Assembly: GCA_041649155.1 (NCBI GenBank)
Contig: JBAZNP010000001.1
Coordinates: forward strand, 302,564-366,563
Direction of reading: 5' to 3'
DNA: 64,000 nt
From: Patescibacteria group bacterium
GTDB lineage: Bacteria > Patescibacteriota > UBA1384 > XYA2-FULL-43-10 > 1-14-0-10-43-13
Made by a program: the position numbers and the translations under genes. This document shows, piece after piece, positions 2,375 through 63,416 of this stretch. Numbering within the stretch: the first letter of the stretch is position 1; every line of letters starts with the position of its first letter. The notes under the pieces are model-generated. The model was given only the letters and a program-made list of their open reading frames with translations. It did no database searches and was not told the origin of the DNA.

Positions 2375-3384
2375 TCTCAATAGTAATCGTTGGCTATAAT
2401 AGCAAAAAATATCTACCAGACTGTTTGTTTAGTATTTTTAAATCCAAATATAATAAATTTCGAGTGATCTTCGTTGACAATCACTCATCGGATAATTCAT
2501 CTGAATATGTAAAGAAGGTATTTAAAGAAGTGGTGGTAATTGAAAGCGAAAAAAACCTGGGATTCGCTAGTGGAAATAATCTGGGAATCAAGAAGGCGTT
2601 AGAACTAAAATCGGATTATATTTTTCTACTAAATCCTGACACAGTCATCGATGAGGATTGCCTTTCAAGTCTCATAAAAAATGCAAACGACCGAACTATT
2701 TTGCAACCATTGATTTTATTGTTCAAGAATGGTAAAAAAACCAATATAGTAAATACTGCAGGAGGCTATTTAAACTTTCTGGGTTTCAGCTATTGTGGAG
2801 GTTATAAGAATCCTTCAAGTAATTTTCAATCCACTCAAGAAATTATTGTAGCAAGCGGTGCTGGTGTATTTATACCCAATAAGGTTTTTAAAGAAATCGG
2901 GGGGTTTGATGAACTTTTTTTTATGTATCATGAAGATGTTGATCTTTTCTGGAGAGCTAGGCTTGCCGGTTATAAGATAATGCTCCTTCCTTCAGCAAAA
3001 ATGTGGCATAAATATGAATTCTCTCGAAATAAAAAGAAATTCTTTTATTCAGAAAGAAATCGTTTGCTTTTTTTGTTTAAAAACTTCAGCATTAAAATGA
3101 TATTGGTGGTTTTACCTGCACTAATTATTAGTGATATATTGATGATTTTATTCTCGATTAAAGAAGGTTGGTTTGGTTACAAACTTAGATCATACTTTAG
3201 CCTCATTTCTCTTTTCCCGCACGTCGTAAAAGAAAGAATGATTACGAAACACAAAGTTTCTTACCATGATTTAAAATTACTAATTGATTCAGAAATTTCT
3301 TTTTCAGAAGTTAAGATTCCCGCCTTAAAACTATATAATCTGTTTAATACCTATTATTGGTCAACCGTTAAGAAATTAATTTAG
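2371..3384 (+). CDS. GT2 family glycosyltransferase
   Basis: ISIVIVGYNS...FVDNHSSD...DED motifs and a C-terminal membrane segment. Overlaps the upstream gene by 4 nt. Confidence 0.8.
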   Translation: MISIVIVGYNSKKYLPDCLFSIFKSKYNKFRVIFVDNHSSDNSSEYVKKVFKEVVVIESEKNLGFASGNNLGIKKALELKSDYIFLLNPDTVIDEDCLSSLIKNANDRTILQPLILLFKNGKKTNIVNTAGGYLNFLGFSYCGGYKNPSSNFQSTQEIIVASGAGVFIPNKVFKEIGGFDELFFMYHEDVDLFWRARLAGYKIMLLPSAKMWHKYEFSRNKKKFFYSERNRLLFLFKNFSIKMILVVLPALIISDILMILFSIKEGWFGYKLRSYFSLISLFPHVVKERMITKHKVSYHDLKLLIDSEISFSEVKIPALKLYNLFNTYYWSTVKKLI

Positions 3385-3390
3385 AGCAAG

Positions 3391-4530
3391 ATGAGCAAAG
3401 AAAAGAAAACTAGAATCGCCCATGTTTCAGCTGTTTTTGTAAGAAATGGAGGCGGAACCGGCCAAGCATGCTATCAGTTGGTCTCAAAATTGAATAAAAT
3501 GCCTGACTTAGAAGTTGAGGTTTTTTTGCCCGCATCTCAAAAACAAAGTTCTGAAATTGAAAAAGAAGTAAAGATAAACTACATCGAACCTCATTTCTCA
3601 TTCGGCAACAGTGCCCTTATTCCCCGATTAACCAATCAGCTTAAAGGTTTTGACATTATTCATTTGCATTATCCTTTTTTCGGTGGAGCAGAATATGTTC
3701 AAAAAGCCTCTTCAAAATTTGATATTCCCTATATAATCACTTTTCACACTGATACTGTTTTCCAAAGCATCGTTCTGACAACAATTTTAAAGATTTATAA
3801 TTTTATTTACCAAAAAAAGATTATTAGTGATGCTACTAAAGTAATTGGGGTTACTAAGTCCCATTTAAATAGCTCTTCTATAGCCAATCTCGCAAATAAG
3901 GCCAAAAAAGTTTTTATTCCGAATGGTGTTGCTGACATTTTTTTCACCAAGCAAAGATTCAAGCAACAAATCAACAAAAACAAAGCATGTTTAACTCTCG
4001 GATTTTGCTCTGTTATTGATAACGCACATTATTATAAAGGCTTAGAGATATTAATGGAGGCTATTAAGGATATTGATGCAAAATTATTAATTTGCGGTGA
4101 CGGCAATCTCTTGTCTCACTACAAAAAAGTTTCTTATGGTCTTGGAGTCAATGCTAAATGCCATTTTCTTGGTGCACTGGAGAGCGAAAAACTAGTTGAT
4201 TTTTATGATTCTATAGATATTTTAGTTTCGCCTTCGACAATTGCTGAATCGTTTTCAATAGTCAATATTGAATCTCTCTCTAGGGGAAAACCTATAATCA
4301 CCGCTTCTTGGCCAGCTACAAAAGAGATCGCACAATCTTTTCCTGCAGGTTATTATAATCTACTAACCGAAATTACTCCAAAGGCAATTGAAAATAAAAT
4401 CAATGAAGTTGCTTCTAATTTAGAGAGTTTTAAGCCGCAAGAAGCTTTGGTGATTAATGTGACCCGCGATCAATATAATTGGGGAAATATATCAAAAAAA
4501 ATAGTTAGGGAGTATCTTAATGTTCATTAA
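3391..4530 (+). CDS. GT4 family glycosyltransferase (GT-B retaining type)
   Basis: 379 aa. Architecture and a C-terminal EX7E-like region (ESFSIVNIESLSRGKP) match GT4. Confidence 0.7.
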   Translation: MSKEKKTRIAHVSAVFVRNGGGTGQACYQLVSKLNKMPDLEVEVFLPASQKQSSEIEKEVKINYIEPHFSFGNSALIPRLTNQLKGFDIIHLHYPFFGGAEYVQKASSKFDIPYIITFHTDTVFQSIVLTTILKIYNFIYQKKIISDATKVIGVTKSHLNSSSIANLANKAKKVFIPNGVADIFFTKQRFKQQINKNKACLTLGFCSVIDNAHYYKGLEILMEAIKDIDAKLLICGDGNLLSHYKKVSYGLGVNAKCHFLGALESEKLVDFYDSIDILVSPSTIAESFSIVNIESLSRGKPIITASWPATKEIAQSFPAGYYNLLTEITPKAIENKINEVASNLESFKPQEALVINVTRDQYNWGNISKKIVREYLNVH

Positions 4531-6445
4531 TCTTCAAGACATATTCGCAATTTGCAAAATATTTTTAATACTATTTTTGAGTTGTTTTGCGTTTTACTAC
4601 CCGCTCGTTTTTCTAACTAAAAATAGAAAGATATCTGCTGGTCTATCAATACCCATATCCTTGTCATTTGAAATAATTATTGGTTATATTTTTTATACTC
4701 TTGGAACCATCAAACAGTTTCCTATATACTACTTACTTTTAATCATTGTTCTTAACATAGTTTTTACCATTCTAATTAGGCAAAAAAGAATTGTGATTAA
4801 AGAAAAGGTTATAAACCTTAACTATAAGAACTTTTTCTTGATGGCCATGTTGGCAATACCAGTACTATTCACGCGTTTTTATGATGCCATTAAAAATGTT
4901 GCTCCAGGCGGTATCGATACGTTTGCTCACATCGCTCTGCTAAAGCAACTAGATGAAATCGGTTACTTGGGTGATACTTTTTATGCTCCAGGTTTTCACC
5001 TGATCATGTATCCCCTCACAAGATTTGTAGACTATGCTGACATTTATCGATTTGCAGGCCCCGCGATAGGAGTAATAATCGTTTTATCTTTTTGGCTGAT
5101 TATGAGATTAATCCTTAAAAATAAGATTGTCTTAGTTGTTGCTGTGTTATTATTATGCCTTCCGGTTTTCAATCAATTAATTCTTCAAATGATCTATTTT
5201 TTTCCTTCAGCTCTAACATTCACATTTTTACTCGGTTCAATTTATCTTCTCCTTTCTCCTAAAGAACTTTCTACAAAATTGAAACTACTGCTCTACTTAA
5301 TCATTTCTATTGGGATATCATTTTCTGTGCCTTATTTTTTTATTGAATATATCGTAGCAATTTTAGCTTTAGTTATTATTTCGATTTTTGCCTCATTTCG
5401 CGATCCTAAATACAAAAAGTTTCTATTCATTGTCTTTTTTATAATATCTTGTTTCGGACTATTTCTTTCTTTAGGTCATGTTTATCTGCAGACGAAACTT
5501 CATAAAGGAGGTTTCCCCGAAATTGCAATTGCCAAAAATCAAGGAGGAAAAATTGTTAGCAGTATAAATACCGATATAGATGATGCTAAGACAGATAATA
5601 AATTAGGACTAGTAGCAAAAAACAGCTTTAATGTTTGCGCCTTCTTATCAAAAGGACTTTTTGCAAAAAAATATCTTTTTCCTGTTTGCCAGACAGGGAA
5701 AGATGTATTAAATATCAAAAATATTCGTGAGCCAGCAGGTTTACTATCTGTGGGAGCCTATTTATGGATTGTTGTTTCGTTGCTTATGCTTTTTTATGGA
5801 ATAAAGAGACGAGACCAGAAGAAAGTCGTTTTTGCTGTTTTTAGCTTGGTTTACGGAATATCAACCCAAACTGGAATTTTAGAAATGAGCTATTATCGCG
5901 GTCGTAGCGGCTGGTATCTTCTCTTTCTGTCGATATTAGGCATATCATCTATAATAGATGAATTACCGCTGAAGAAAATTTCAAAACCAGTATGCTTTTT
6001 TTCTATTCTATTATACCTTCTCGCCTTCACATCTCCACCTGTTTTTTATCGTGCCTATTTCACAGAACCGTTTCTTGTCGCATACAACGCAATAAAAGAA
6101 AACCCTCAAGACAAATTAGTATTCATCACAAATCAGAAAAATTTAACCTTATTGTCAGACAATGTTTCTGTGCTAAACTTACAAAAAACCTCGCTTAATC
6201 AAATAAGTTCAAAAGAGAAAGCATTTGTTGTGTTAGATAAGAAATTCTTTCAAAAAGATCCCGTTCTCTCTCAACAAGCATTATCAATTGATAAGGGATA
6301 TAAACAATTTAGTTCGCAACAAAAACTCCAACAAAAAATACAAGAAAACACTAATTCAGAAATAAAATCCTCCCTTGAATTTTCCAATTATGCGATCTAC
6401 TGGGAAAACGATAATATAGAAGTTTATCAACTAAAGAAAGAGTAA
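4520..6445 (+). CDS. Polytopic membrane protein, putative GT-C fold glycosyltransferase (ArnT/PMT-like) using a polyprenol-P-sugar donor
   Basis: 641 aa with ~11-13 predicted TM helices followed by a soluble C-terminal domain. The context (GT2 polyprenol-P sugar synthase plus small membrane protein upstream) supports the call. No motif-level proof. Confidence 0.4.
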   Translation: MFINLQDIFAICKIFLILFLSCFAFYYPLVFLTKNRKISAGLSIPISLSFEIIIGYIFYTLGTIKQFPIYYLLLIIVLNIVFTILIRQKRIVIKEKVINLNYKNFFLMAMLAIPVLFTRFYDAIKNVAPGGIDTFAHIALLKQLDEIGYLGDTFYAPGFHLIMYPLTRFVDYADIYRFAGPAIGVIIVLSFWLIMRLILKNKIVLVVAVLLLCLPVFNQLILQMIYFFPSALTFTFLLGSIYLLLSPKELSTKLKLLLYLIISIGISFSVPYFFIEYIVAILALVIISIFASFRDPKYKKFLFIVFFIISCFGLFLSLGHVYLQTKLHKGGFPEIAIAKNQGGKIVSSINTDIDDAKTDNKLGLVAKNSFNVCAFLSKGLFAKKYLFPVCQTGKDVLNIKNIREPAGLLSVGAYLWIVVSLLMLFYGIKRRDQKKVVFAVFSLVYGISTQTGILEMSYYRGRSGWYLLFLSILGISSIIDELPLKKISKPVCFFSILLYLLAFTSPPVFYRAYFTEPFLVAYNAIKENPQDKLVFITNQKNLTLLSDNVSVLNLQKTSLNQISSKEKAFVVLDKKFFQKDPVLSQQALSIDKGYKQFSSQQKLQQKIQENTNSEIKSSLEFSNYAIYWENDNIEVYQLKKE

Positions 6446-36593: not shown

Positions 36594-36621
36594 GTCATCC
36601 CAGACTTGATCTGGGATCCAG
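36594..36621. repeat. Family-A palindromic repeat unit (GTCATCCCAGA-CTTGA-TCTGGGATCCAG)
   Basis: Hairpin with an 8-bp stem. Same unit type as 61900, 44305 and 45315. Confidence 0.7.
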
Positions 36622-36624
36622 AAT

Positions 36625-36942
36625 ATGAAAAATTACTTTGTCTATATCCTGACAAGCAGAAGAAACGGCACATTATATATTGGCGTTACGAATAATTTAA
36701 TTAGAAGAGTTTGGGAACACAAAGAAAAATTAGTTGATGGTTTTACAAAAAAGTATGACATTAATAAATTGGTTTATTATGAAATGACCACGGATATTGA
36801 AGCAGCAATTAGCAGAGAGAAACTGTTAAAATCTTGGAATAGAAAGTGGAAAATGGAATTAATTGAGAAGGTAAATCCAAACTGGAATGATTTATATGAT
36901 GAATTGGTAAATACTGGATCCTCGGGTCAAGCCCGAGGATGA
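36625..36942 (+). CDS. GIY-YIG nuclease family protein (UPF0213/YhbQ-like)
   Basis: YFVYILTSRRNGTLYIGVTNNLIRRVWEHK is the GIY-YIG motif. The last 9 codons are encoded by the flanking palindromic repeat. Confidence 0.8.
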   Translation: MKNYFVYILTSRRNGTLYIGVTNNLIRRVWEHKEKLVDGFTKKYDINKLVYYEMTTDIEAAISREKLLKSWNRKWKMELIEKVNPNWNDLYDELVNTGSSGQARG

Positions 36943-36943
36943 C
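36916..36943. repeat. Family-A palindromic repeat unit, inverted orientation (GGATCCTCGGG-TCAAG-CCCGAGGATGAC)
   Basis: Its reverse complement differs by 1 nt from the unit at 44305-44332. Confidence 0.7.
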
Positions 36944-39366: not shown

Positions 39367-39505
39367 ATTAGAAGAGATAAGAGACAAATAGAAATTAATT
39401 TTTAAATCCTAATTTCTAATGTCAAACAAAATATCAAATGCTTAAATAATTTAGAAATTTGGAATTTAGATTTTTGTTTGTAATTTGTTATTTGGATTTT
39501 GAAAT

Positions 39506-41187: not shown

Positions 41188-43494
41188 TTAGCCTTTAGGC
41201 CATTTTGAGATCATTATTGACTCACAAAGTTCTGGATAAATATTCCTAAGCTCCTGCCAGACTGCTTCAGTTACAAAAGGCACAAATGGATGAAGCATTA
41301 TAAGAGTTTCCGAGAGAACTTTTATTAGTACCTTTTTAGTTGTCAGTTGTAAGCCGTGCCTACCGGCAGGCAGGTTGTCAGTTGTAAGTTGCGTTTTAGC
41401 AACTTCGATATACTCATCGCAGAAATCATGCCAGAAATAGTCATAAATTTCCTCGCCGGCATGAGAGAAACGAAATTCGTTCAATTTTTTAGTGATGGAT
41501 TTTTTAACTTCTTCATGCTTTTTCAAAATCTCTTTGTCTGGACCAGTCAATATTTTTTCGTCAATATTCAAATTAGTAACTTTTGTTTCGCCGATTTTTC
41601 CGCTTTGAATGTCGCCTTCAGATACTCGTAGCATTACAAAACGAGAAGCATTCCAAATCTTATTTGAAAAATTACGGTAGCCTTTAATTTTTGCTTCACC
41701 AAGCGCAACGTCCTGTCCCGGTGTCGAACCGACAACCAAAGCCATTCGCAGAGCATCTGTGCCGTACTTATCGATAATATCCAAAGGATCCAAAACATTG
41801 CCAAGAGACTTGCTCATCTTTCGATTATGCTCATCCCGAACCAGACCGTGAAGATATACCGTTTCAAAAGGAACCTCTCCTGTTAGCTCTAGTCCCATCA
41901 TGATCATTCGAGCAACCCAGAAAAATAAAATATCGTAACCGGTTTCAAGCACATTTGTCGGATAAAAAGATTTTAAATCATTTGTTTCTTGTGGCCAACC
42001 TAAGGTTGAAAATGGCCACAAAGAAGACGAAAACCAAGTGTCTAAGACATCTTCGTCTTGCTCCCAATTTTCAATATCTTTCGGCGGCTCGACACCGACG
42101 TAAATATTGTCCTGACCCTGACAGGATTTCTCGCCTTCATTCATCCGCCCAACGGCGGGTTCTGAATGGGTCGAAATGACATCTTGGAATTTGGGATTTG
42201 GGACTTCATTAGAAATTAGAAATTCGGAATTAGAAATTCCCCGTCTGTACCAGACGGGTATCTGATGTCCCCACCAAAGTTGGCGAGAGATGCACCAATC
42301 ACGAATGTTGTCCATCCAGTGAAAATATACTTTTTCAAAACGCTCCGGAATTATTTTGATTTGTCCGGATCTTACAGCCTCTTTGGCTTTTTCTGCCAAA
42401 GGCGCCATTTTTACGAACCACTGCAAAGAAGGAAGGGGCTCAATTGTGCCGCCACATCGATAACAAACGCTCAAATTATTTGTATAATCCTCTTCTTTTT
42501 CGAGCAAATCGTTTTCTTTGAAATATTGAATTAATTTCTCTGCCGCTTCCTTTGTTTTTAAACCTTGATATTTGCCGGCCTCTTCAGTCATTCTGCCATT
42601 TTCATCTATGACTTTGATTTTTTCAAGTTTATGATCTTCGGACATCTTCCAGTCAGTCATTGAATGAGCTGGTGTTACACCAACTGCGCCGGTACCAAAT
42701 TTTTCATCAATTGACCTATCGGCAATAATTTTGATCTTACGCTTAACGCCGTCAAGATCAATTTCATATTCTTTACCGATAAATTCTTTGTATCGCTTAT
42801 CGTTCGAGTTAACAGCAACGGCCACATCACCAAGCTTGGTTTCCGGTCTCGTAGTCGCGATTGTTATCGGGAAATTTTTATCATATTTGAAATAATAAAG
42901 TTTTGATGACTTTTCAATGTGTTCAACCTCGTCATCAGCAATAGCCGTGTGGCATTTCGGGCACCAGTTAACAATGTAATTACCTCGATAGATAAGGCCT
43001 TTTTTATAAAGCCTGGTGAATGCTTCATTAACTGCCTTGTTTAATCCTTCATCAAGGGTAAATCTTTCCCTTGACCAATCACAGGATGAACCAAGCCGGC
43101 GAAGCTGATTTGTAATCGCATTACCATGCTCCTCTTTCCACTTCCAAACCTCCTCAACAAATTTGTCCCTACCGATTTCGTTTTTGTTAATGCCTTTTTT
43201 GCGAAGAGATTTATCAACCACAGTTTGAGTGGCAATGCCAGCGTGATCTGTGCCGGGAAGCCAAAGCGATGGCTCGCCCAAAAGGCGATGGTATCTAGTT
43301 AAAATATCTTCAAGAGTTGAAAACATGGCATGACCAAGGTGAAGTTTGCCGGTTACATTCGGAGGCGGCATCATGATTGTGAACGGCTTGCCATCCAGAT
43401 TCACTTCAGGTTTAAAATAGCCGGATTTTTCCCAGTTATTATAGATCTTCTCTTCAAATTTTTGCGGCTCGTAAGCCTTAGAAATTTCTTTCAT
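41188..43494 (-). CDS. valS: Valyl-tRNA synthetase, carrying a ~47-aa in-frame repeat-derived insertion
   Basis: HIGH-like PPPNVTGKLHLGHA, KMSKS, DVLDTWFSS. The track ORF extends to 43617, but its first 41 codons are translations of the intergenic repeats. The true start MKEISKAYEP is at 43494. Confidence 0.9.
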   Translation of the reverse strand: MKEISKAYEPQKFEEKIYNNWEKSGYFKPEVNLDGKPFTIMMPPPNVTGKLHLGHAMFSTLEDILTRYHRLLGEPSLWLPGTDHAGIATQTVVDKSLRKKGINKNEIGRDKFVEEVWKWKEEHGNAITNQLRRLGSSCDWSRERFTLDEGLNKAVNEAFTRLYKKGLIYRGNYIVNWCPKCHTAIADDEVEHIEKSSKLYYFKYDKNFPITIATTRPETKLGDVAVAVNSNDKRYKEFIGKEYEIDLDGVKRKIKIIADRSIDEKFGTGAVGVTPAHSMTDWKMSEDHKLEKIKVIDENGRMTEEAGKYQGLKTKEAAEKLIQYFKENDLLEKEEDYTNNLSVCYRCGGTIEPLPSLQWFVKMAPLAEKAKEAVRSGQIKIIPERFEKVYFHWMDNIRDWCISRQLWWGHQIPVWYRRGISNSEFLISNEVPNPKFQDVISTHSEPAVGRMNEGEKSCQGQDNIYVGVEPPKDIENWEQDEDVLDTWFSSSLWPFSTLGWPQETNDLKSFYPTNVLETGYDILFFWVARMIMMGLELTGEVPFETVYLHGLVRDEHNRKMSKSLGNVLDPLDIIDKYGTDALRMALVVGSTPGQDVALGEAKIKGYRNFSNKIWNASRFVMLRVSEGDIQSGKIGETKVTNLNIDEKILTGPDKEILKKHEEVKKSITKKLNEFRFSHAGEEIYDYFWHDFCDEYIEVAKTQLTTDNLPAGRHGLQLTTKKVLIKVLSETLIMLHPFVPFVTEAVWQELRNIYPELCESIMISKWPKG
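42110..42262. repeat. Composite palindromic repeat insertion inside valS (GC-rich hairpins plus TTAGAAATT motif)
   Basis: Hairpins CCCGTCTG-TAC-CAGACGGG and GGAATT-AGA-AATTCC, plus a GAAATGAC terminus. They encode RGISNSEFLISNEVPNPKFQDVISTHSEPAVGRMNEGEKSCQGQ between the conserved WY and DNIYVG. Confidence 0.7.
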
Positions 43495-43542
43495 CACAAT
43501 TAAAATATCACAAGAGAGCTTTAAGCGCCAGAACCAATATTT

Positions 43543-43615
43543 GTCATTCCCGTGTAGACGGGAATCTACTAAAAGATATAAAACTATCTTGGATCCCCGC
43601 CTTCGCGGGGATGAC
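43543..43615. repeat. Family-A composite element (two inverted hairpin units plus 21-bp spacer), intergenic between valS and tsaD
   Basis: GTCATTCCCGTGTAGACGGGAATCTAC ... GGATCCCCGCCTTCGCGGGGATGAC. Confidence 0.8.
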
Positions 43616-43632
43616 ATGGAAAATAAGAAATG

Positions 43633-44832
43633 TCATATCTCTAAATTTGAATTGATTTCAATGTCTTTCCATGTTGAAATATTTTTCTTTTGAATATGGT
43701 AGTAAGCCGCTAGCCCGATCATTGCGGCATTATCACCACATAAATTTTTAGGCGCAGGTAAAAATTTTATACTGTTATCTGTTATCTGTATTCTGTATGC
43801 TAACTCGCTTCTCAAGCGAGTATTGGCAGCAACTCCTCCGGCCAGCACAACTGCTTTCGGCTCAAATTTCTCCACTGCCCTCATCGTTTTTGTAACCAGC
43901 ACATCAACAACAGCATCCTCAAAAGCAGCACAGATCTCTTCCTTTTGATCTTCCGAAATTAATCCCTGCTTTCTTGAATCAATCACTTTCTGGAGTACTG
44001 CAGTCTTAAGCCCAGAGAAAGAAAAGTTAAAAGTTCCATTATTCAGGATTGGTCTCGGAAAAATAATCCCTTCTCTGCCCTCTACCTTCCCCTTTCTACT
44101 TCTAAACTTGCTTGCGAGCTTAGAAACCACTGGTCCACCTGGATAGCCTAGCCCGAGCAACTTAGCCACCTTATCAAAAGCTTCGCCTGCCGCATCGTCT
44201 AAAGTCTGCCCGATCGTTTCGTATTCTCCATGATCTTTCATAAGTGTCAGCGAAGTATGACCGCCACTTACAGTTAATGATAAGACTGGAAATTGACACG
44301 AAGTGTCATCCTCGGGCTTGACCCGGGGATCCACTAATAGTAGATTCCCGCCTTCGCGGGAATGACAATAAGCGAAAGCGGAGTATATGTGTCCTTCTAT
44401 GTGATTTACGGGAATAATCGGCTTATCCAAAGAATAAGCCGTGGCCTTTGCAGCATTAAATCCGACTAAAAGAGATCCGATTAAACCTGGACCATTAGTA
44501 ACGGCAATGTGAGTGATATCATTCTGAAGCACTTTTATAGCCTCAGAATAGTTACTAGTTCCTAGTTTCGAATCATTAGAATCCTTGTAACTAGTGACTT
44601 GTAGCTTGTTACTCGCCTGAATCAATGCTTCCGTTATCACTGGAATAATATTTTCCATATGAGCACGACTGGCCACTTCAGGTACGACTCCGCCTGTTAT
44701 CGCATGCAAATCGACTTGAGAATTTACAATATTTGATAGAACAATAGGATTGCCATCTTTTTCGCCAATTACAGAAGCAGCCGTCTCATCGCAGCTCGTC
44801 TCAATAGCTAATATTTTAATATCTTTTTTCAT
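43633..44832 (-). CDS. tsaD: tRNA N6-adenosine threonylcarbamoyltransferase TsaD/Kae1, carrying in-frame repeat insertions
   Basis: ILAIETSCDETAASV...GGVVPEVASRAH...NGPGLIGSLLVG...SGGHTSL. At 399 aa it is ~60 aa longer than a typical TsaD. Confidence 0.85.
   Translation of the reverse strand: MKKDIKILAIETSCDETAASVIGEKDGNPIVLSNIVNSQVDLHAITGGVVPEVASRAHMENIIPVITEALIQASNKLQVTSYKDSNDSKLGTSNYSEAIKVLQNDITHIAVTNGPGLIGSLLVGFNAAKATAYSLDKPIIPVNHIEGHIYSAFAYCHSREGGNLLLVDPRVKPEDDTSCQFPVLSLTVSGGHTSLTLMKDHGEYETIGQTLDDAAGEAFDKVAKLLGLGYPGGPVVSKLASKFRSRKGKVEGREGIIFPRPILNNGTFNFSFSGLKTAVLQKVIDSRKQGLISEDQKEEICAAFEDAVVDVLVTKTMRAVEKFEPKAVVLAGGVAANTRLRSELAYRIQITDNSIKFLPAPKNLCGDNAAMIGLAAYYHIQKKNISTWKDIEINSNLEI
43771..43800. 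repeat. Family-C repeat copy (ACTGTTATCTGTTATCTGTATTCTGTATGC) inside tsaD
   Basis: Near-identical to 60617-60647. Inverted copy at 45554-45580. Confidence 0.6.
44305..44366. repeat. Family-A composite element inserted in-frame within tsaD
   Basis: GTCATCCTCGGGCTTGACCCGGGGATCCAC TAATAGTA GATTCCCGCCTTCGCGGGAATGAC. Translated as ...AYCHSREGGNLLLVDPRVKPEDDTSCQF... Confidence 0.8.
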
Positions 44833-44844
44833 AAATAATGATTT

Positions 44845-44866
44845 GAGCCCCGACGTGTCGGGGCTC
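44845..44866. terminator. GC hairpin GAGCCCCGAC-GT-GTCGGGGCTC, possible terminator or attenuator between convergent gene ends
   Basis: Perfect 10-bp stem. The flanking T run is only moderate. Confidence 0.35.
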
Positions 44867-44891: not shown

Positions 44892-45194
44892 TTAATATGC
44901 ATTCTTGCTTGCTTTAAGTTTCTTGTTTAGCCGCATATGGTCGATTAATATTCCCAACACCAGCCCAATGATAATCTCTGCTAGATACCAAGACCCGATT
45001 GAAACATGAAGTACCATCGTCCCCACGATAAGCGCACCGAATGGTAGCAGAAAGAAAACATGATAAGAGTATCTGTTGAAATCAAGCGACAAGATGCCAC
45101 CCTGTTTTGGGCTCACACTTATAAACTCTCCAAAACGTACAAACAATACTCCAAGCACTAGTGCGCTTAAAATTACAAAAACTTGAATTGCCAC
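44892..45194 (-). CDS. Small hydrophobic membrane protein, function unknown
   Basis: 100 aa with 3 predicted TM helices. Confidence 0.4.
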   Translation of the reverse strand: MAIQVFVILSALVLGVLFVRFGEFISVSPKQGGILSLDFNRYSYHVFFLLPFGALIVGTMVLHVSIGSWYLAEIIIGLVLGILIDHMRLNKKLKASKNAY

Positions 45195-45314
45195 TATAGC
45201 ACCTCTCTGTCGACACTAAAACTATACCATTTACGCTCGATTAAAGCAACGAAGTTTGTTGGTTATCCTCCCCTCGACTTGCTAGGGCTAATTTGATACT
45301 CTAAAAGTGACGTA

Positions 45315-45381
45315 GTCATCCCCGCGAAGGCGGGGATCCATAAAACTATTTATATAGATTCCCGATCAGGTCGGGAATGAC
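45315..45381. repeat. Family-A composite element overlapping the annotated start of the femAB-like gene
   Basis: GTCATCCCCGCGAAGGCGGGGATCCA TAAAACTATTTATATA GATTCCCGATCAGGTCGGGAATGAC. Confidence 0.8.
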
Positions 45382-46375
45382 ACATGGAATGAATTCATCA
45401 ATCTATCAAACCCCCGAGTGGGAACAATTCAAGCTTAAAACCGGATACGAGAAAAGCTACCGTATTGAAGACATTTTAGTATTGCAAAAAAAGTTACCTT
45501 TCGGCAGAACCATGCTTTACTCACCAATGGTGAGCGAGCACCAGCTCGCTGGTATTCAGAATGCAGATAACAGAATACAGAAAGATTTTGTAACTGGAAT
45601 AAAAAAGGTTGCGGAAGAAAATAATGCAATATTTTATCGCTTAGAATTAGATATTCCAAAAGAACTTTCCACTTTCCACTTTCCACTTTCCACTCGAAAC
45701 TTTCAAAAAAGTTTCGAAGAGATGCAGCCTGAAAATAATTGGGTGGTTGATATTACAAAAACCGAAGATGAAATACTGGCTCAAATGAAGCAAAAAGGCC
45801 GATACAACATTAGAGTGGCAGAGAAAAACAATATCGAGATAACATCATCAGACAAAGCTGGGAAAGAACTGGATGTTTTTTACGATCTGTATTCAAAAAC
45901 CGGCAAACGAAAAGGCGTTACCTATAGAGGCAAGGCATATTTCGAAAATCTGCTTGATATTTTAGGCAAAATTGACTATGCTAGAACGTACGCCGCTACA
46001 GCAAAAATCAACAGTAAAACTGTTCCCCTTGCTGCTGCTGTCATAATTTTTTATAAAAAAGAAGCGCTCTACCTCTACGGCGGATCAAGCGACGAATATA
46101 AAAATTTGATGGCTCCTTACCTTCTCCACTGGAAAATCATGCTTGATGCGAAAGAAAAGAGAATTGAAAAATACAATTTTCTAGGCGTGGCTCCCGCCGG
46201 AACAAGCCCTCTGGGCGAGGCCACTGACGACCCTTCCCATCCATGGGCCGGCATCACAAGATTCAAAAAACAATTTGGCGGTGAACAGAAAGATATTCTG
46301 GGCAGTTACGATTTAATCCTGAAGCCGCTTGAGTATCAATTGTTTAAAATAGCAGAAAAAATAAGACGCAAATAA
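45377..46375 (+). CDS. FemAB-family peptidoglycan aminoacyltransferase
   Basis: KQKGRYNIRVAEKNNIEI and YLLHWKIMLDAKEKRIEKYNFLGV match FemXAB signatures. The true start is probably the ATG at 45389, because the track start lies in the repeat. Confidence 0.65.
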   Translation: MTHGMNSSIYQTPEWEQFKLKTGYEKSYRIEDILVLQKKLPFGRTMLYSPMVSEHQLAGIQNADNRIQKDFVTGIKKVAEENNAIFYRLELDIPKELSTFHFPLSTRNFQKSFEEMQPENNWVVDITKTEDEILAQMKQKGRYNIRVAEKNNIEITSSDKAGKELDVFYDLYSKTGKRKGVTYRGKAYFENLLDILGKIDYARTYAATAKINSKTVPLAAAVIIFYKKEALYLYGGSSDEYKNLMAPYLLHWKIMLDAKEKRIEKYNFLGVAPAGTSPLGEATDDPSHPWAGITRFKKQFGGEQKDILGSYDLILKPLEYQLFKIAEKIRRK

Positions 46376-61850: not shown

Positions 61851-61870
61851 CCTGCCTGCCGGCAGGCAGG
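61851..61870. repeat. Perfect GC palindrome CCTGCCTGCC-GGCAGGCAGG after the M15 gene stop
   Basis: 20-bp perfect palindrome with no adjacent T-run. May be a terminator or another repeat unit. Confidence 0.4.
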
Positions 61871-61899: not shown

Positions 61900-61997
61900 G
61901 TCATCCCAGACTGTGACTTGAGATCTGGGATCCAGTAGAGAATTCAACCTCACCTAGCCTCTCCTTCGAAAGGAGAGGAATTATATCAGAATGACAA
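61900..61997. repeat. Family-A composite element (~98 bp): GTCATCCCAGA...TCTGGGATCCAG, second hairpin CCTCTCCTT-CGAA-AGGAGAGG, then ...AGAATGAC
   Basis: Left unit near-identical to 36594-36621. Terminal GTCAT...ATGAC inverted ends. Confidence 0.65.
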
Positions 61998-62032
61998 TTG
62001 TCCCATAATTCATAATTCAAAATTCTAACCAT

Positions 62033-63283: not shown

Positions 63284-63416
63284 AAGATACAAGAAACAAG
63301 AAAGCAATGACCAAACAATATTCAATAATCAATCGTCAAAGACTCAAATGTTTGAATATTTTGAATTTGGATATTTGAGATTGTTTGTATCTTGTAACTT
63401 GTATCTTGTTTCTTAG
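63284..63416. repeat. Family-D element: inverted heptamer-iteron arrays around central TCAAATGTTTGA, no cargo
   Basis: AAGATAC AAGAAAC AAGAAAG ... TCAAATGTTTGA ... TGTATCT TGTAACT TGTATCT TGTTTCT. About 80% identical to 48140-48273. Confidence 0.7.

Follow-up and report, generated by a model that had tools for sequence, protein, structure and literature searches.

The essential tRNA-modification gene tsaD of a Patescibacteria metagenome-assembled genome (MAG) was found to contain within its reading frame a 62-bp pair of convergent GC-rich hairpins with their tags facing outward. By their sequence these hairpins are CGTC/TGTC-tagged REPs (Di Nocera 2013), the same thing as the Ssn-related motifs (SRM/NTS; Chenal 2025). 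We consider it likely that this gene-less SRM dimer entered tsaD as DNA, was filtered for reading frame and loop position, and is probably translated as a loop of a functional TsaD. The window is the whole stretch of DNA that was analysed, 64 kb of a 799-kb contig, and all copy counts refer to it. The features discussed below, in window positions, are:

36594..36943, + strand: complete SRM-ssn-SRM unit, with the left SRM at 36594-36620 (+) and the right SRM at 36915-36943 (-)
36625..36942, + strand: ssn-like gene, single-domain GIY-YIG nuclease of 105 aa (Pfam PF01541, E = 1e-15)
42124..42180, - strand: SRM-like tagged long hairpin (GTCATTTCG...CGAGAAATCC), in-frame within valS
43539..43637, unstranded: SRM pair B, a 99-nt block whose hairpins occupy 43543-43615 (alignment to L001; hairpin folds)
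43633..44832, - strand: tsaD, 399 aa, uninterrupted ORF (Pfam, NCBIfam)
44294..44308, + strand: inverted tag copy just outside arm 1 (TGACA-CGAAG-TGTCA)
44304..44334, + strand: SRM arm 1 of the tsaD insert, which is pair C (SRM pattern match; ssDNA-fold hairpin)
44340..44367, - strand: SRM arm 2 of the tsaD insert (SRM pattern match)
45315..45381, unstranded: SRM pair D (hairpin scan, folds, alignment to the closest relative)
61900..61934, + strand: lone SRM, an enlarged-loop variant of the one at the left of the ssn unit

A first-pass annotation of the window had described a 62-bp hairpin pair in the tsaD frame, and direct reading of the sequence agreed exactly: positions 44305-44366 hold two hairpin units, the first of 30 nt and the second of 24 nt, separated by 8 nt of AT-rich spacer, and the 399-aa ORF is unbroken. 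Arm 1 consists of the tag TGTC, a 9-bp stem (ATCCTCGGG/CCCGGGGAT, with one T.G pair on the + strand), the loop CTTGA, and the tail CCA, while arm 2, TGTCATTCCCGCGAAGGCGGGAATCTAC, has an 8-bp stem, the loop GAAG, and the tail CTA. Folded as ssDNA, the insert reached -19 kcal/mol (z = -4.6; SRM units across the window, z ~ -4.6 to -5.3), and its sense strand also formed two stable hairpins. The GC content of the insert was 0.58 versus 0.41 for the rest of tsaD. The element boundaries show a direct repeat of the tag (TGTCAT...TGTCA), and the inverted tag at 44294..44308, which encodes ..DTSCQ on the coding strand, is kept in all orthologous tsaD insertions. An extra inverted tag beside one end was also observed for each short element.

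Several comparisons assigned the hairpins to a known family. Both arms match the degenerate SRM pattern HGTCWYN(0-2)YYVSBRHN(0-5)WNVSBRGN(0-2)RNCYNB (from PMC11893778), which occurred five times in the window with 0.13 matches expected from first-order Markov simulation, and by direct comparison arm 2 agrees with the Neisseria NTS consensus CGTCATTCCCGCGMAVGCGGGAATCYRG (PMC11893778) at 26 of 28 positions. The CGTC REPs carry a CGTC or TGTC tag, an 8- or 9-bp stem beginning with AT, a 4- or 5-nt loop, and a short CCA-like tail (PMC3733652), and on this description arm 2 was CGTC-1-like and arm 1 CGTC-3/4-like. A tag-plus-hairpin scan of the window found eight units in four convergent pairs against 0.4 expected. 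All eight clean units were built as TGTC, CGTC, or AGTC plus AT.. stem .. AT plus C, and all eight stood in opposite-orientation pairs, as did many of 120 foreign loci. The tag GTCATYCCCG, with one mismatch permitted, was present 10 times against 3.0 expected, a count reached in 0 of 100 shuffles. The exact 27-mer of arm 1 was found in at least 120 species-genome stretches from Alphaproteobacteria to Patescibacteria, often in convergent pairs, and dating of the insertion by hairpin identity was abandoned because of this conservation across phyla. An Rfam scan of the whole window returned nothing at the repeats or the tsaD locus, its sole match being a SAM riboswitch at 1086-1215.

Repeat comparison within the window paired arm 2 with 43541-43571, and arm 1 shared 94% identity across 32 nt with the SRM flanking the ssn gene (36912-36943). 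The copies listed in the first-pass annotation at 43543-43615 and 45315-45381 are true members of the family, while that at 61900-61997 proved to be half a member, with one SRM followed downstream by an unrelated hairpin (61958-61978) and then ..GAATGACA; the key copy at 36594-36943, which carries the GIY-YIG gene, had been missed. The 99-nt block of pair B is absent from the closest relative, is inserted in the last tsaD codons, and now supplies the tsaD stop. Pair D, likewise absent from the closest relative, lies in the divergent spacer between tsaD and femAB, directly upstream of the femAB-like gene. Of the three gene-less pairs in the window, one interrupts an essential gene while preserving its frame, and a second cuts short the 3' end of that gene. 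The long hairpin in valS adjoins an AT-rich repeat (42208-42237). A second candidate insertion that had been suggested at ~44545-44625 is a real length-variable region, but we rejected it as an insertion of the SRM kind since it is not palindromic, does not fold (z = -0.48), and occurs in the closest relative as well; its sole resemblance is to an AT-rich spacer repeat.

The partner gene of the tsaD repeat is the ssn-like gene, which encodes a predicted GIY-YIG nuclease. Its unit lies 7.4 kb from the tsaD insert, in which the flanking SRM arrangement is identical and the gene is missing, and the architecture of the unit is that of the NTS-ssnA-NTS unit (PMC11893778). The Pfam GIY-YIG domain spans residues 3-77 of 105. 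The right SRM contains the final eight codons together with the TGA stop (..GSSGQARG*), and with its last eight residues SRM-encoded the protein fits the ~94-aa single-domain GIY-YIG form of the Ssn family. Homologues with 65-82% identity were found in many phyla, most of them 94-105 aa long and many with SRM-encoded N- or C-terminal tails, and at six alphaproteobacterial loci an ssn homologue was located 7-36 nt from an identical 27-mer SRM. Residues Y7, Y18, and E65 of the window nuclease would sit one position off Y6, Y17, and E64, which were mutated in the Nm enzyme. A PDB sequence search for an Ssn structure found none.

Comparison with a lineage lacking the insert, as the first-pass annotation had suggested, was informative. 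The closest relative (P0002) encodes a TsaD 85% identical over its full length, its site is empty with an ordinary, ancestral-type 7-residue loop (AESDKEIEFP), and its 12.6-kb syntenic contig contains no SRM, versus three pairs in the corresponding 3 kb of the window. Orthologous insertions were present in five other tsaD alleles from independent assemblies (JGI, Logan, ENA), with the frame kept despite differing insert lengths. Between the window and P0003, the hairpin codons were identical at 20 of 21 conserved residues (95%) compared to 46% in the rest of the gene, with a dS of 2.5 outside the hairpins. The SRM-bearing tsaD alleles were dispersed across three or more clades, and every one of these clades also contained sister alleles free of SRMs. 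The bearers had in common the flank codons DDT[SM]C[QHR]FP, which do not belong to the element at other locations; the arm combinations L1R1, L2R1, and L2R2 were all represented among their inserts. Synonymous differences between the window tsaD and that of P0002 were clustered, to a degree reached in 0 of 5000 permutations, and the insert lies inside a divergent block of this comparison, within which no available SRM-bearing allele was specifically closer as a donor. Presence or absence at the tsaD site appears to have changed largely via homologous recombination between alleles. A metagenome scan for DNA encoding HIEGHIYSAFA yielded six loci, none from the same species and none with an SRM at the site. 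In comparisons of filled and empty sites, pairs C and D had no target-site duplication and pair B nothing beyond an ambiguous 'AT', and no defined end chemistry for SRM pairs was found.

To the protein, the insert contributes residues ~156-176, in the context ..HIEGHIYSAFAY-CHSREGGNLLLVDPRVKPEDD-TSCQFPVLSLTVSGGH, where the predicted product reads AYCHSREGGNLLLVDPRVKPEDDTSCQF. Only one of the six reading frames of the insert is stop-free, and tsaD uses that one, in which the encoded peptide is charged and hydrophilic (HSREGGNLLLVDPRVKPEDD). The in-frame gain had been put at ~21 residues; the gain is real and its net figure is +19 aa relative to the closest relative and ~+20 aa relative to T. 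maritima TsaD. The statement that this TsaD is ~60 aa longer than typical was borne out, the excess over solved bacterial TsaDs (327-343 aa) being ~56-70 aa. The product scored 362.5 bits against the TIGR03723 TsaD equivalog (cutoff 296.1), its AlphaFold2 model (pTM 0.83) matched E. coli TsaD in Foldseek with a TM of 0.85-0.88, and pLDDT fell below 50 solely at residues 78-89 and 156-177. The catalytic residues H144, H148, and D367 (the HxxxH metal site and the Asp of GDNAAM) were invariant in the TsaD alignment, and with a dN/dS of 0.12 tsaD is under purifying selection. Alignment and structure, which the first-pass annotation had proposed for placing the extra residues, put them in a loop modelled at low confidence; disorder is predicted for the segment, which is probably an extra surface-exposed loop of TsaD. 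The loop after the HxxxH metal-binding helix was expanded in most of 120 TsaD homologues, suggesting that in Patescibacteria it tolerates many kinds of insertion, and about 15 of the 120 carried SRM-type peptides, at no fewer than four sites. Because the single frame is open and the loop tolerant and predicted to be disordered, the insert would be translated as an extra TsaD loop, and we infer that it is carried there as a neutral passenger. It would persist in tsaD because it passed a strict filter, namely a stop-free frame, a hydrophilic peptide, predicted disorder, and a tolerant loop.

In-frame pairs were also found in other Patescibacteria, in valS (twice), a P-type ATPase, and a GT4 glycosyltransferase (verified with Pfam), and in a small sample of these organisms four of nine matches of one 27-mer were in-frame in real genes. 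The intragenic cases kept are from low-GC Patescibacteria only. An ORF-spanning test for intragenic SRMs in high-GC Alphaproteobacteria was uninformative due to long spurious ORFs.

Three explanations would deny that a mobile element is translated within a working TsaD. The extra residues might be an ancestral, lineage-specific TsaD loop that merely resembles the repeats, as could be argued from the five tsaD alleles with an insert at the exact site and identical flank codons. The first-pass annotation had named this as the outcome that would overturn its reading, and the evidence already contradicts it: the insert is missing from the closest relative and from the sisters of every allele that bears an SRM, all of which keep loops resembling those of distant homologues; the inserted DNA is the same as that of intergenic units of the window and of the 27-mer of unrelated phyla; and codon identity in the insert far exceeds that of the remaining gene. 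We therefore regard an ancestral loop as hardly credible. An assembly artefact or the mark of a pseudogene is very improbable; the window protein comes from one MAG contig only and repeats can be misassembled, but the orthologous insertions come from independent assemblies, and the ORF is intact, with constrained evolution, invariant catalytic residues, and a confidently modelled core. Removal after transcription or translation, in the manner of an intron or intein, would leave the insert absent from mature TsaD, and the two stable hairpins of the sense strand could be read in its favour. At 62 nt or 20 aa, however, the insert is far below known self-splicing introns or inteins, the Rfam scan was empty at the locus, and removal would not require a stop-free frame or lengths in multiples of three in five lineages, all of which makes such processing exceedingly implausible.

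The Neisseria and Wolbachia Ssn enzymes bind ssDNA hairpins strand-specifically and nick a few nt 5' of the tag (PMC11893778). By analogy, each arm of the tsaD insert would extrude as a hairpin when single-stranded, Ssn would bind it strand-specifically and nick a few nt 5' of its tag, and in a convergent pair the nicks would fall just outside the element on opposite strands. It is from this analogy that we infer recognition of the insert by Ssn and its mode of spread. A bolder proposal, which we offer tentatively and consider unlikely, is that SRM pairs are the mobile form of the CGTC REPs and of the RPE-4/-6-type 'protein-coding palindromes', with Ssn as the mobilising enzyme and homing-like spread from allele to allele in DNA-scavenging Patescibacteria. 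An Ssn nick beside the pair would then be followed by recombinational repair that copies the pair and a few flank codons into empty alleles, and if so, the conserved flank codons, the reshuffled arms, the mosaic tsaD, and the inverted-tag footprint would be its traces. A further, unlikely alternative holds that the tsaD pair is a domesticated, Ssn-dependent DNA signal, not a passive passenger; by steering ssDNA nicks to sites beside or within the essential gene, it would either limit replacement of tsaD by transforming DNA or drive its own homing-like spread between alleles. The NTS-gene-NTS arrangement of Neisseria lowers integration of transforming DNA in an SsnA-dependent manner (PMC11893778), pairs B and D bracket tsaD and pair C interrupts it, conservation of the hairpin DNA well exceeds that of synonymous sites, and the distribution is patchy, with common flank codons and a mosaic gene. 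The conservation, however, is equally explained by family-wide constraint on the SRM, with its 27-mer kept across phyla, the many unrelated insertions in the same loop point to tolerance and not function, and no donor tract could be identified among available SRM-bearing alleles. It is also improbable that the pair was mobilised independently of Ssn, by a RAYT or IS200-IS605 tyrosine transposase, by another transposase, or by slippage or template switching, with the nearby GIY-YIG gene merely sharing its repeats. Such a route draws on the boundary direct tag repeat, which recalls the cleavage-site logic of IS200/IS605, and on the literature, since what Chenal et al. (PMC11893778) demonstrated was a nuclease with an influence on transformation, rather than transposition, and Di Nocera et al. 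(PMC3733652) found no dedicated transposase or associated enzyme for the CGTC REPs. Against it, the tag is TGTC and not the GTAG of RAYT-associated REPs, and the GIY-YIG nuclease is the one protein family consistently flanked by the hairpins across phyla.

In the tiny genomes of Patescibacteria, essential genes exist in one copy each and insertions face severe filtering. Should the pattern extend genome-wide, it would amount to a natural experiment revealing the protein loops that can accommodate 20 extra residues, and the filled and empty sites would offer a tractable set for studying the movement of SRM pairs and the part that Ssn may play in it. In CPR MAGs the repeats also inflate and mis-start gene calls, as at the starts of valS and femAB and the stop of tsaD here, and account for much of the variation in length among CPR proteins. 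The first-pass annotation had presented the behaviour as new for CPR-type genomes. Our literature search found no description of such repeats (palindromic elements, MITEs) in Patescibacteria/CPR, and to that extent the claim stands, but the phenomenon itself was already known: intragenic REP dimers encoding 20-30 aa have been reported, including in tRNA-related genes (PMC3733652). Only the host lineage is new; the kind of element is known.

Among known systems, the SRM/NTS repeats with Ssn (PMC11893778) have in common with those of the window a tagged hairpin in many copies per genome, a ~100-aa GIY-YIG gene flanked by the motif, and convergent flanks; CPR are unmentioned in that paper. NTS are rarely intragenic (2% in N. 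meningitidis; PMC11893778), in contrast to the one in three gene-less pairs found in-frame here. The CGTC REPs (PMC3733652) resemble the tsaD insert in their tag, AT-starting 8-9-bp stems, 4-5-nt loops, CCA-like tail, and opposite-orientation dimers. Their survey recorded them in five phyla, chiefly in Alphaproteobacteria and with none from CPR, and did not describe an orthologous insert common to, and reshuffled among, diverged alleles of one gene. The REP/BIME repeats with RAYT are similar to SRM pairs in that tagged hairpins, often in inverted pairs, flank the gene of an enzyme that acts on ssDNA hairpins, but they combine a GTAG tag with an HUH tyrosine transposase instead of CGTC/TGTC with a GIY-YIG nuclease; a RAYT-associated REP was ruled out on the tag (TGTC/CGTC) and the repeat-flanked gene. 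Classical MITEs (Correia, ERIC, RUP) are likewise small, non-autonomous, and multi-copy, with inverted termini and occasional in-frame fusions. For SRM pairs, neither a transposase-bearing parent IS nor a consistent target-site duplication, the marks of a MITE in the strict sense, emerged from the comparisons made here; their gene-bearing relative encodes a predicted nuclease, and their 'terminal inverted repeats' are the two self-folding hairpins.

In behaviour the insert parallels the Rickettsia palindromic elements, of which RPE-1 is a selfish palindrome that enters housekeeping genes of unrelated kinds without breaking their frame, is compatible with fold and function, and is translated (Ogata et al. 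2000, 2002; PMC10969869). In-frame insertion of this type was seen here in tsaD, at a loop predicted to be disordered, and, in other Patescibacteria, in valS, the P-type ATPase, and the GT4 enzyme. RPE-1 is ~150 bp long with a conserved encoded peptide of 30-50 aa (PMC10969869), so the 62-bp size of the tsaD insert excludes RPE-1 itself, and kinship in sequence is not expected; the link is instead to RPE-4 and RPE-6, by classification in PMC3733652, where the CGTC-tagged REP superfamily includes both of these together with Neisseria dRS3. The RPE-like behaviour noted in the first-pass annotation, that of an in-frame mobile palindromic repeat belonging to an intergenic family, was upheld, and the analogy is closer than had been stated because RPE-4 and RPE-6 are grouped with the CGTC REPs.

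At 44305-44366 the window read GTCATCCTCGGG-CTTGA-CCCGGGGATCCAC, a spacer TAATAGTA, and GATTCCCGCC-TTCG-CGGGAATGAC, exactly the layout of two hairpin units and a spacer given in the first-pass annotation, and the segment lay, as also claimed there, in frame within a single unbroken ORF. This ORF was identified as tsaD by Pfam PF00814 (E = 5e-81, in three stretches) and TIGR03723 (362 bits, above its cutoff of 296). The insert had a GC content of 0.58 versus 0.41 for the remainder of tsaD, and as single-stranded DNA it folded with z = -4.6 on either strand. The hairpin motif in the window is not due to chance, with 10 occurrences of a 10-nt tag-plus-stem pattern (3.0 expected) and eight clean units in a tag-plus-hairpin scan (0.4 expected). 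These eight units formed four convergent pairs with tags (T/C/A)GTCAT facing outwards, and pairs B, C, and D were each 62-73 bp with AT-rich spacers:

43633-44832, minus strand: tsaD, 399-aa ORF, PF00814 and TIGR03723
36594-36943: pair A, two hairpins around a 105-aa GIY-YIG ORF
43543-43615: pair B, a pair of Ssn-related motifs (SRM), from the tag-plus-hairpin scan
44305-44366: pair C, the tsaD insert, an SRM pair from the same scan
45315-45381: pair D, an SRM pair from the same scan
44294-44308, 43616-43636, 45307-45319, 61992-62003: inverted tag copies (ATGACA-N-TGTCA) next to short SRM elements

Pair A had been missed in the first pass. By Pfam its ORF is a GIY-YIG nuclease (E = 1e-15), and the final eight codons and stop of the ORF fall inside the right hairpin. 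This hairpin and the tsaD arm at 44305-44336 shared 94% identity over 32 nt. Of the copies proposed earlier, two are pairs B and D, and the third (61900-61997) belongs to the family only in part: it starts with a single unit, whose loop is enlarged, and continues with a hairpin unrelated to the family.

Chenal et al. 2025 (PMC11893778) described the Neisseria hairpin NTS, CGTCATTCCCGCGMAVGCGGGAATCYRG (dRS3 extended), and defined the degenerate SRM. SsnA, a single-domain GIY-YIG protein of ~94 aa whose gene has NTS/SRM motifs on both sides, binds the hairpin as ssDNA only, cleaves strand-specifically a few nucleotides 5' of the tag, and reduces the recombination of transforming DNA that carries NTS (PMC11893778). 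The same hairpins were catalogued earlier by Di Nocera et al. 2013 (PMC3733652) as CGTC-tagged REPs, with a CGTC or TGTC tag, 8-9-bp stems with an AT start, 4-5-nt loops, and a CCA tail. They occur mostly as dimers, include Neisseria dRS3 and Rickettsia RPE-4/RPE-6, are already reported as intragenic dimers coding 20-30 aa, and "apparently lack a dedicated transposase" (PMC3733652).

Both arms of the tsaD insert matched the published SRM pattern (5 matches in the window versus 0.13 expected) and the CGTC-REP description, and the minus-strand arm departed from the Neisseria NTS consensus in the two outermost bases only, with 26 of 28 positions in agreement. The other arm contains a 27-mer (GATCCYCGGGTCAAGCCCGAGGATGAC) that recurred exactly in at least 120 stretches of species-representative genomes, from Rhizobiaceae, Brevundimonas, Mesorhizobium, Sulfurovum, Treponema, and Nitrospirae to Bacteroidetes, Muiribacteriota, Peribacteria, Saccharibacteria, and other Patescibacteria, frequently in convergent pairs of about 75-80 bp. 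In six alphaproteobacterial loci this 27-mer lay 7-36 nt from a homologue of the window nuclease. Homologues of this nuclease 65-82% identical to it came from Patescibacteria, Dadabacteria, Nitrospirota-like bacteria, Ignavibacteria, Thermotogota, and Proteobacteria, and many had N- or C-terminal tails that are translated hairpins (e.g., GSSGQARG, WIPAFAGMT, SFPRSL..ESR). Based on the pattern match, the NTS agreement, the CGTC-REP fit, the spread of the 27-mer, and the nuclease homologues adjoining it, we concluded that the tsaD insert is, by sequence, a gene-less SRM/CGTC-REP dimer; the window likewise holds a predicted cognate ssn-type unit, ssn being the GIY-YIG nuclease gene.

The insertion in tsaD is real. 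In an alignment of 26 TsaD homologues, the closest relative (P0002; 85% identical over its full length by BLASTP, 89% over aligned columns) read ..SAFA-ESDKEIE-FPLISLTV at the insert site, resembling the loops of distant homologues, and T. maritima TsaD had 8 residues there. No SRM was found in the 12.6-kb syntenic contig of P0002, compared with three pairs in the corresponding 3 kb of the window. Of the six frames in which the 62-nt element can be read, a single one is stop-free; it encodes HSREGGNLLLVDPRVKPEDD and is the frame that tsaD uses. AlphaFold2, run on the 26-sequence alignment, gave a confident TsaD fold (pTM 0.83; Foldseek TM 0.85-0.88, normalised to E. coli TsaD) in which pLDDT dropped below 50 in just two stretches, residues 78-89 and the insert itself (156-177). 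D367 and the two metal-binding histidines, H144 and H148, were invariant in the alignment, and dN/dS (0.12 versus P0002, 0.06 versus the homologue P0003) indicated purifying selection. In most of 120 TsaD homologues the loop after HIEGHIYS carried 10-50 extra residues, mostly translated AT-rich spacer-type repeats (ISNSEFLISN, EIRNPKSEIRN, FPISNFQFP, VESQKSVKSKVQG), which marks this loop as a general insertion hot spot in the clade as judged from the homologues; in-frame repeat capture seems general here, beyond SRMs alone. Taken together, the stop-free frame, the low-pLDDT loop, the purifying selection, and the hot spot suggest that the SRM pair is probably translated as an extra disordered loop of TsaD.

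Five alleles besides the window gene (P0003, P0006, P0009, P0036, and more loosely P0049) carried an SRM-type insert at the same codon. The downstream codons of the first four were alike, ..GA(T/C) GAC AC(T/A) NNN TGT C(A/G)N TT(T/C) CC (DDT[SM]C[QHR]FP), and since this flank was not found beside the same hairpin at the 27-mer loci of other genomes, the inserts are, on their flanking codons, orthologous rather than independent hits. In a neighbour-joining tree of 60 homologues, SRM-bearing alleles were spread over at least three clades, all of which also held SRM-free sisters; P0016, sister of P0009, retained an apparent decayed end (..CAG GAC GAT..), and the arms occurred in reshuffled combinations (CHSREGGNL+DPRVKPEDD, CHSEQSEES+DPRVKPEDD, CHSEQSEES+ILRLPLVAQDD). 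Between the window gene and P0003, conserved-residue codons were identical at 20 of 21 positions inside the element versus 129 of 280 (46%) elsewhere, with a dS of 2.5 outside it. Since these hairpins are also conserved in other phyla, we read this identity as family-wide sequence constraint, not as a sign of recency. The synonymous differences that separate the window gene from P0002 were strongly clustered (from 0-1 to 10-13 per 25 codons; none of 5000 permutations clustered as much), with the insert inside a divergent block at codons ~115-192. The scattered alleles, decayed end, reshuffled arms, and synonymous clustering suggest that alleles gain or lose the insert at this site through homologous recombination with one another, a reading that stays suggestive because no donor for the divergent block was identified among the SRM-bearing alleles compared.

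SRM-type peptides occurred in roughly 15 of the 120 TsaD homologues, at no fewer than four different sites, and in eight CPR loci of the 27-mer scan, 4 of 9 matches were in frame within Pfam-verified genes, all in the DPRVKPEDD frame: Saccharibacteria valS (two separate pairs), a P-type ATPase, and a GT4 glycosyltransferase. The valS pairs (locus L123, MAG CAYILA010000004.1, ORF 2775-5442, reverse) read ..SY[CHSRESGNLVAKDPRVKPEDD]KV.. and ..SSD[VIPDQIGNLSKDPRVKPEDD]SE.., and this gene also carried an AT-rich repeat insertion where the window valS has one. The window valS (minus strand) had, within 42067-42252, about 31 extra in-frame residues relative to T. thermophilus ValRS, made up of the AT-rich repeat ATTAGAAATTCGGAATTAGAAAT, with other copies at 39398, 46450, and 58705, all intergenic, and, at 42124-42180, a long tagged hairpin that is SRM-like. 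The short GC palindrome CTGCCGGCAGG (41359-41370 and 61855-61866) was present in intergenic DNA and also, with one mismatch, in frame within valS (LPAGRHG) at a place that T. thermophilus ValRS lacks; it is possibly a third small gene-entering repeat family.

Compared with the closest relative, pair B formed a 99-nt block (43539-43637) in the last tsaD codons, replacing the ancestral ..IGS(S/G)(T/A) tail and supplying the present stop TGA, while the old tail (IGSGA) remains untranslated just downstream (43521-43538). With pair C inside the gene, tsaD has here been struck twice by the SRM family. A second insertion proposed at 44545-44625 (residues ~70-97) was indeed length-variable, ~27 aa longer than in T. 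maritima TsaD, and of low confidence in the model; it was not palindromic, was also present in the closest relative, and weakly resembled an AT-rich spacer repeat at 63391-63408.

SRMs likely distort gene calls in such genomes. Mechanical ORF starts ran into repeats at 43497-43617 and 45377-45389: the longest valS ORF began within pair B, where homology places the start at MKEISKAY near 43497, and the femAB-like ORF started at the ATG of the SRM tag ATGACA, where the relative's homology suggests 45389. Between tsaD and femAB lay a GC-rich terminator-like hairpin (44845-44866) and a 100-aa hydrophobic ORF (44892-45194, minus strand), both absent from the closest relative's syntenic region. A full-length SAM-I riboswitch (Rfam RF00162, 56 bits) was found at 1086-1215 on the minus strand.

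All short elements in the window had, past one of their ends, an inverted tag copy at a distance of 2-14 nt from the pair, so that the inserted block is bounded by direct TGTCA repeats (TGTCAT...ATGACA-N-TGTCA). At the 27-mer loci compared in other genomes this extra tag was only sporadic; it could be a truncated third unit, an end-processing footprint, or a cleavage-site repeat.

The analysis shows what the repeat is, that a nuclease gene is its partner, how frame and loop act as a filter, that the host gene is under selection, and that the insert is orthologous and patchily distributed. According to the published work, hairpins of this kind are ssDNA recognition sites for Ssn, which nicks 5' of the tag; a convergent pair would then be nicked just outside the element, on opposite strands. 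The resident Ssn presumably recognises the window copies, and the SRM pair would be a near-neutral passenger at the protein level, its spread and loss at tsaD probably proceeding via recombination.

The kind of element is already known, and there is no new kind of system here; what is new is the host lineage and some detail, namely an essential gene with an orthologous, reshuffled insert and an intragenic rate that is high. The literature searched gave no report of SRM/CGTC-REP elements in CPR/Patescibacteria, in line with the first-pass statement that, to its author's knowledge, such RPE-like behaviour had not been described for CPR-type genomes. By sequence and context the tsaD element agreed with both SRM/NTS and CGTC-tagged REPs and failed as a GTAG/RAYT-type REP. 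The original interpretation as a MITE/RPE-like element was essentially right, with MITE apt at least in a loose sense, and the element can be named more precisely as an SRM/CGTC-REP dimer. In N. meningitidis only 2% of NTS are intragenic (Chenal et al., PMC11893778), versus the 4 of 9 27-mer matches in the CPR loci, and in behaviour the element is like the RPEs of Rickettsia; the classification in PMC3733652 places two of these, RPE-4 and RPE-6, in the same superfamily.
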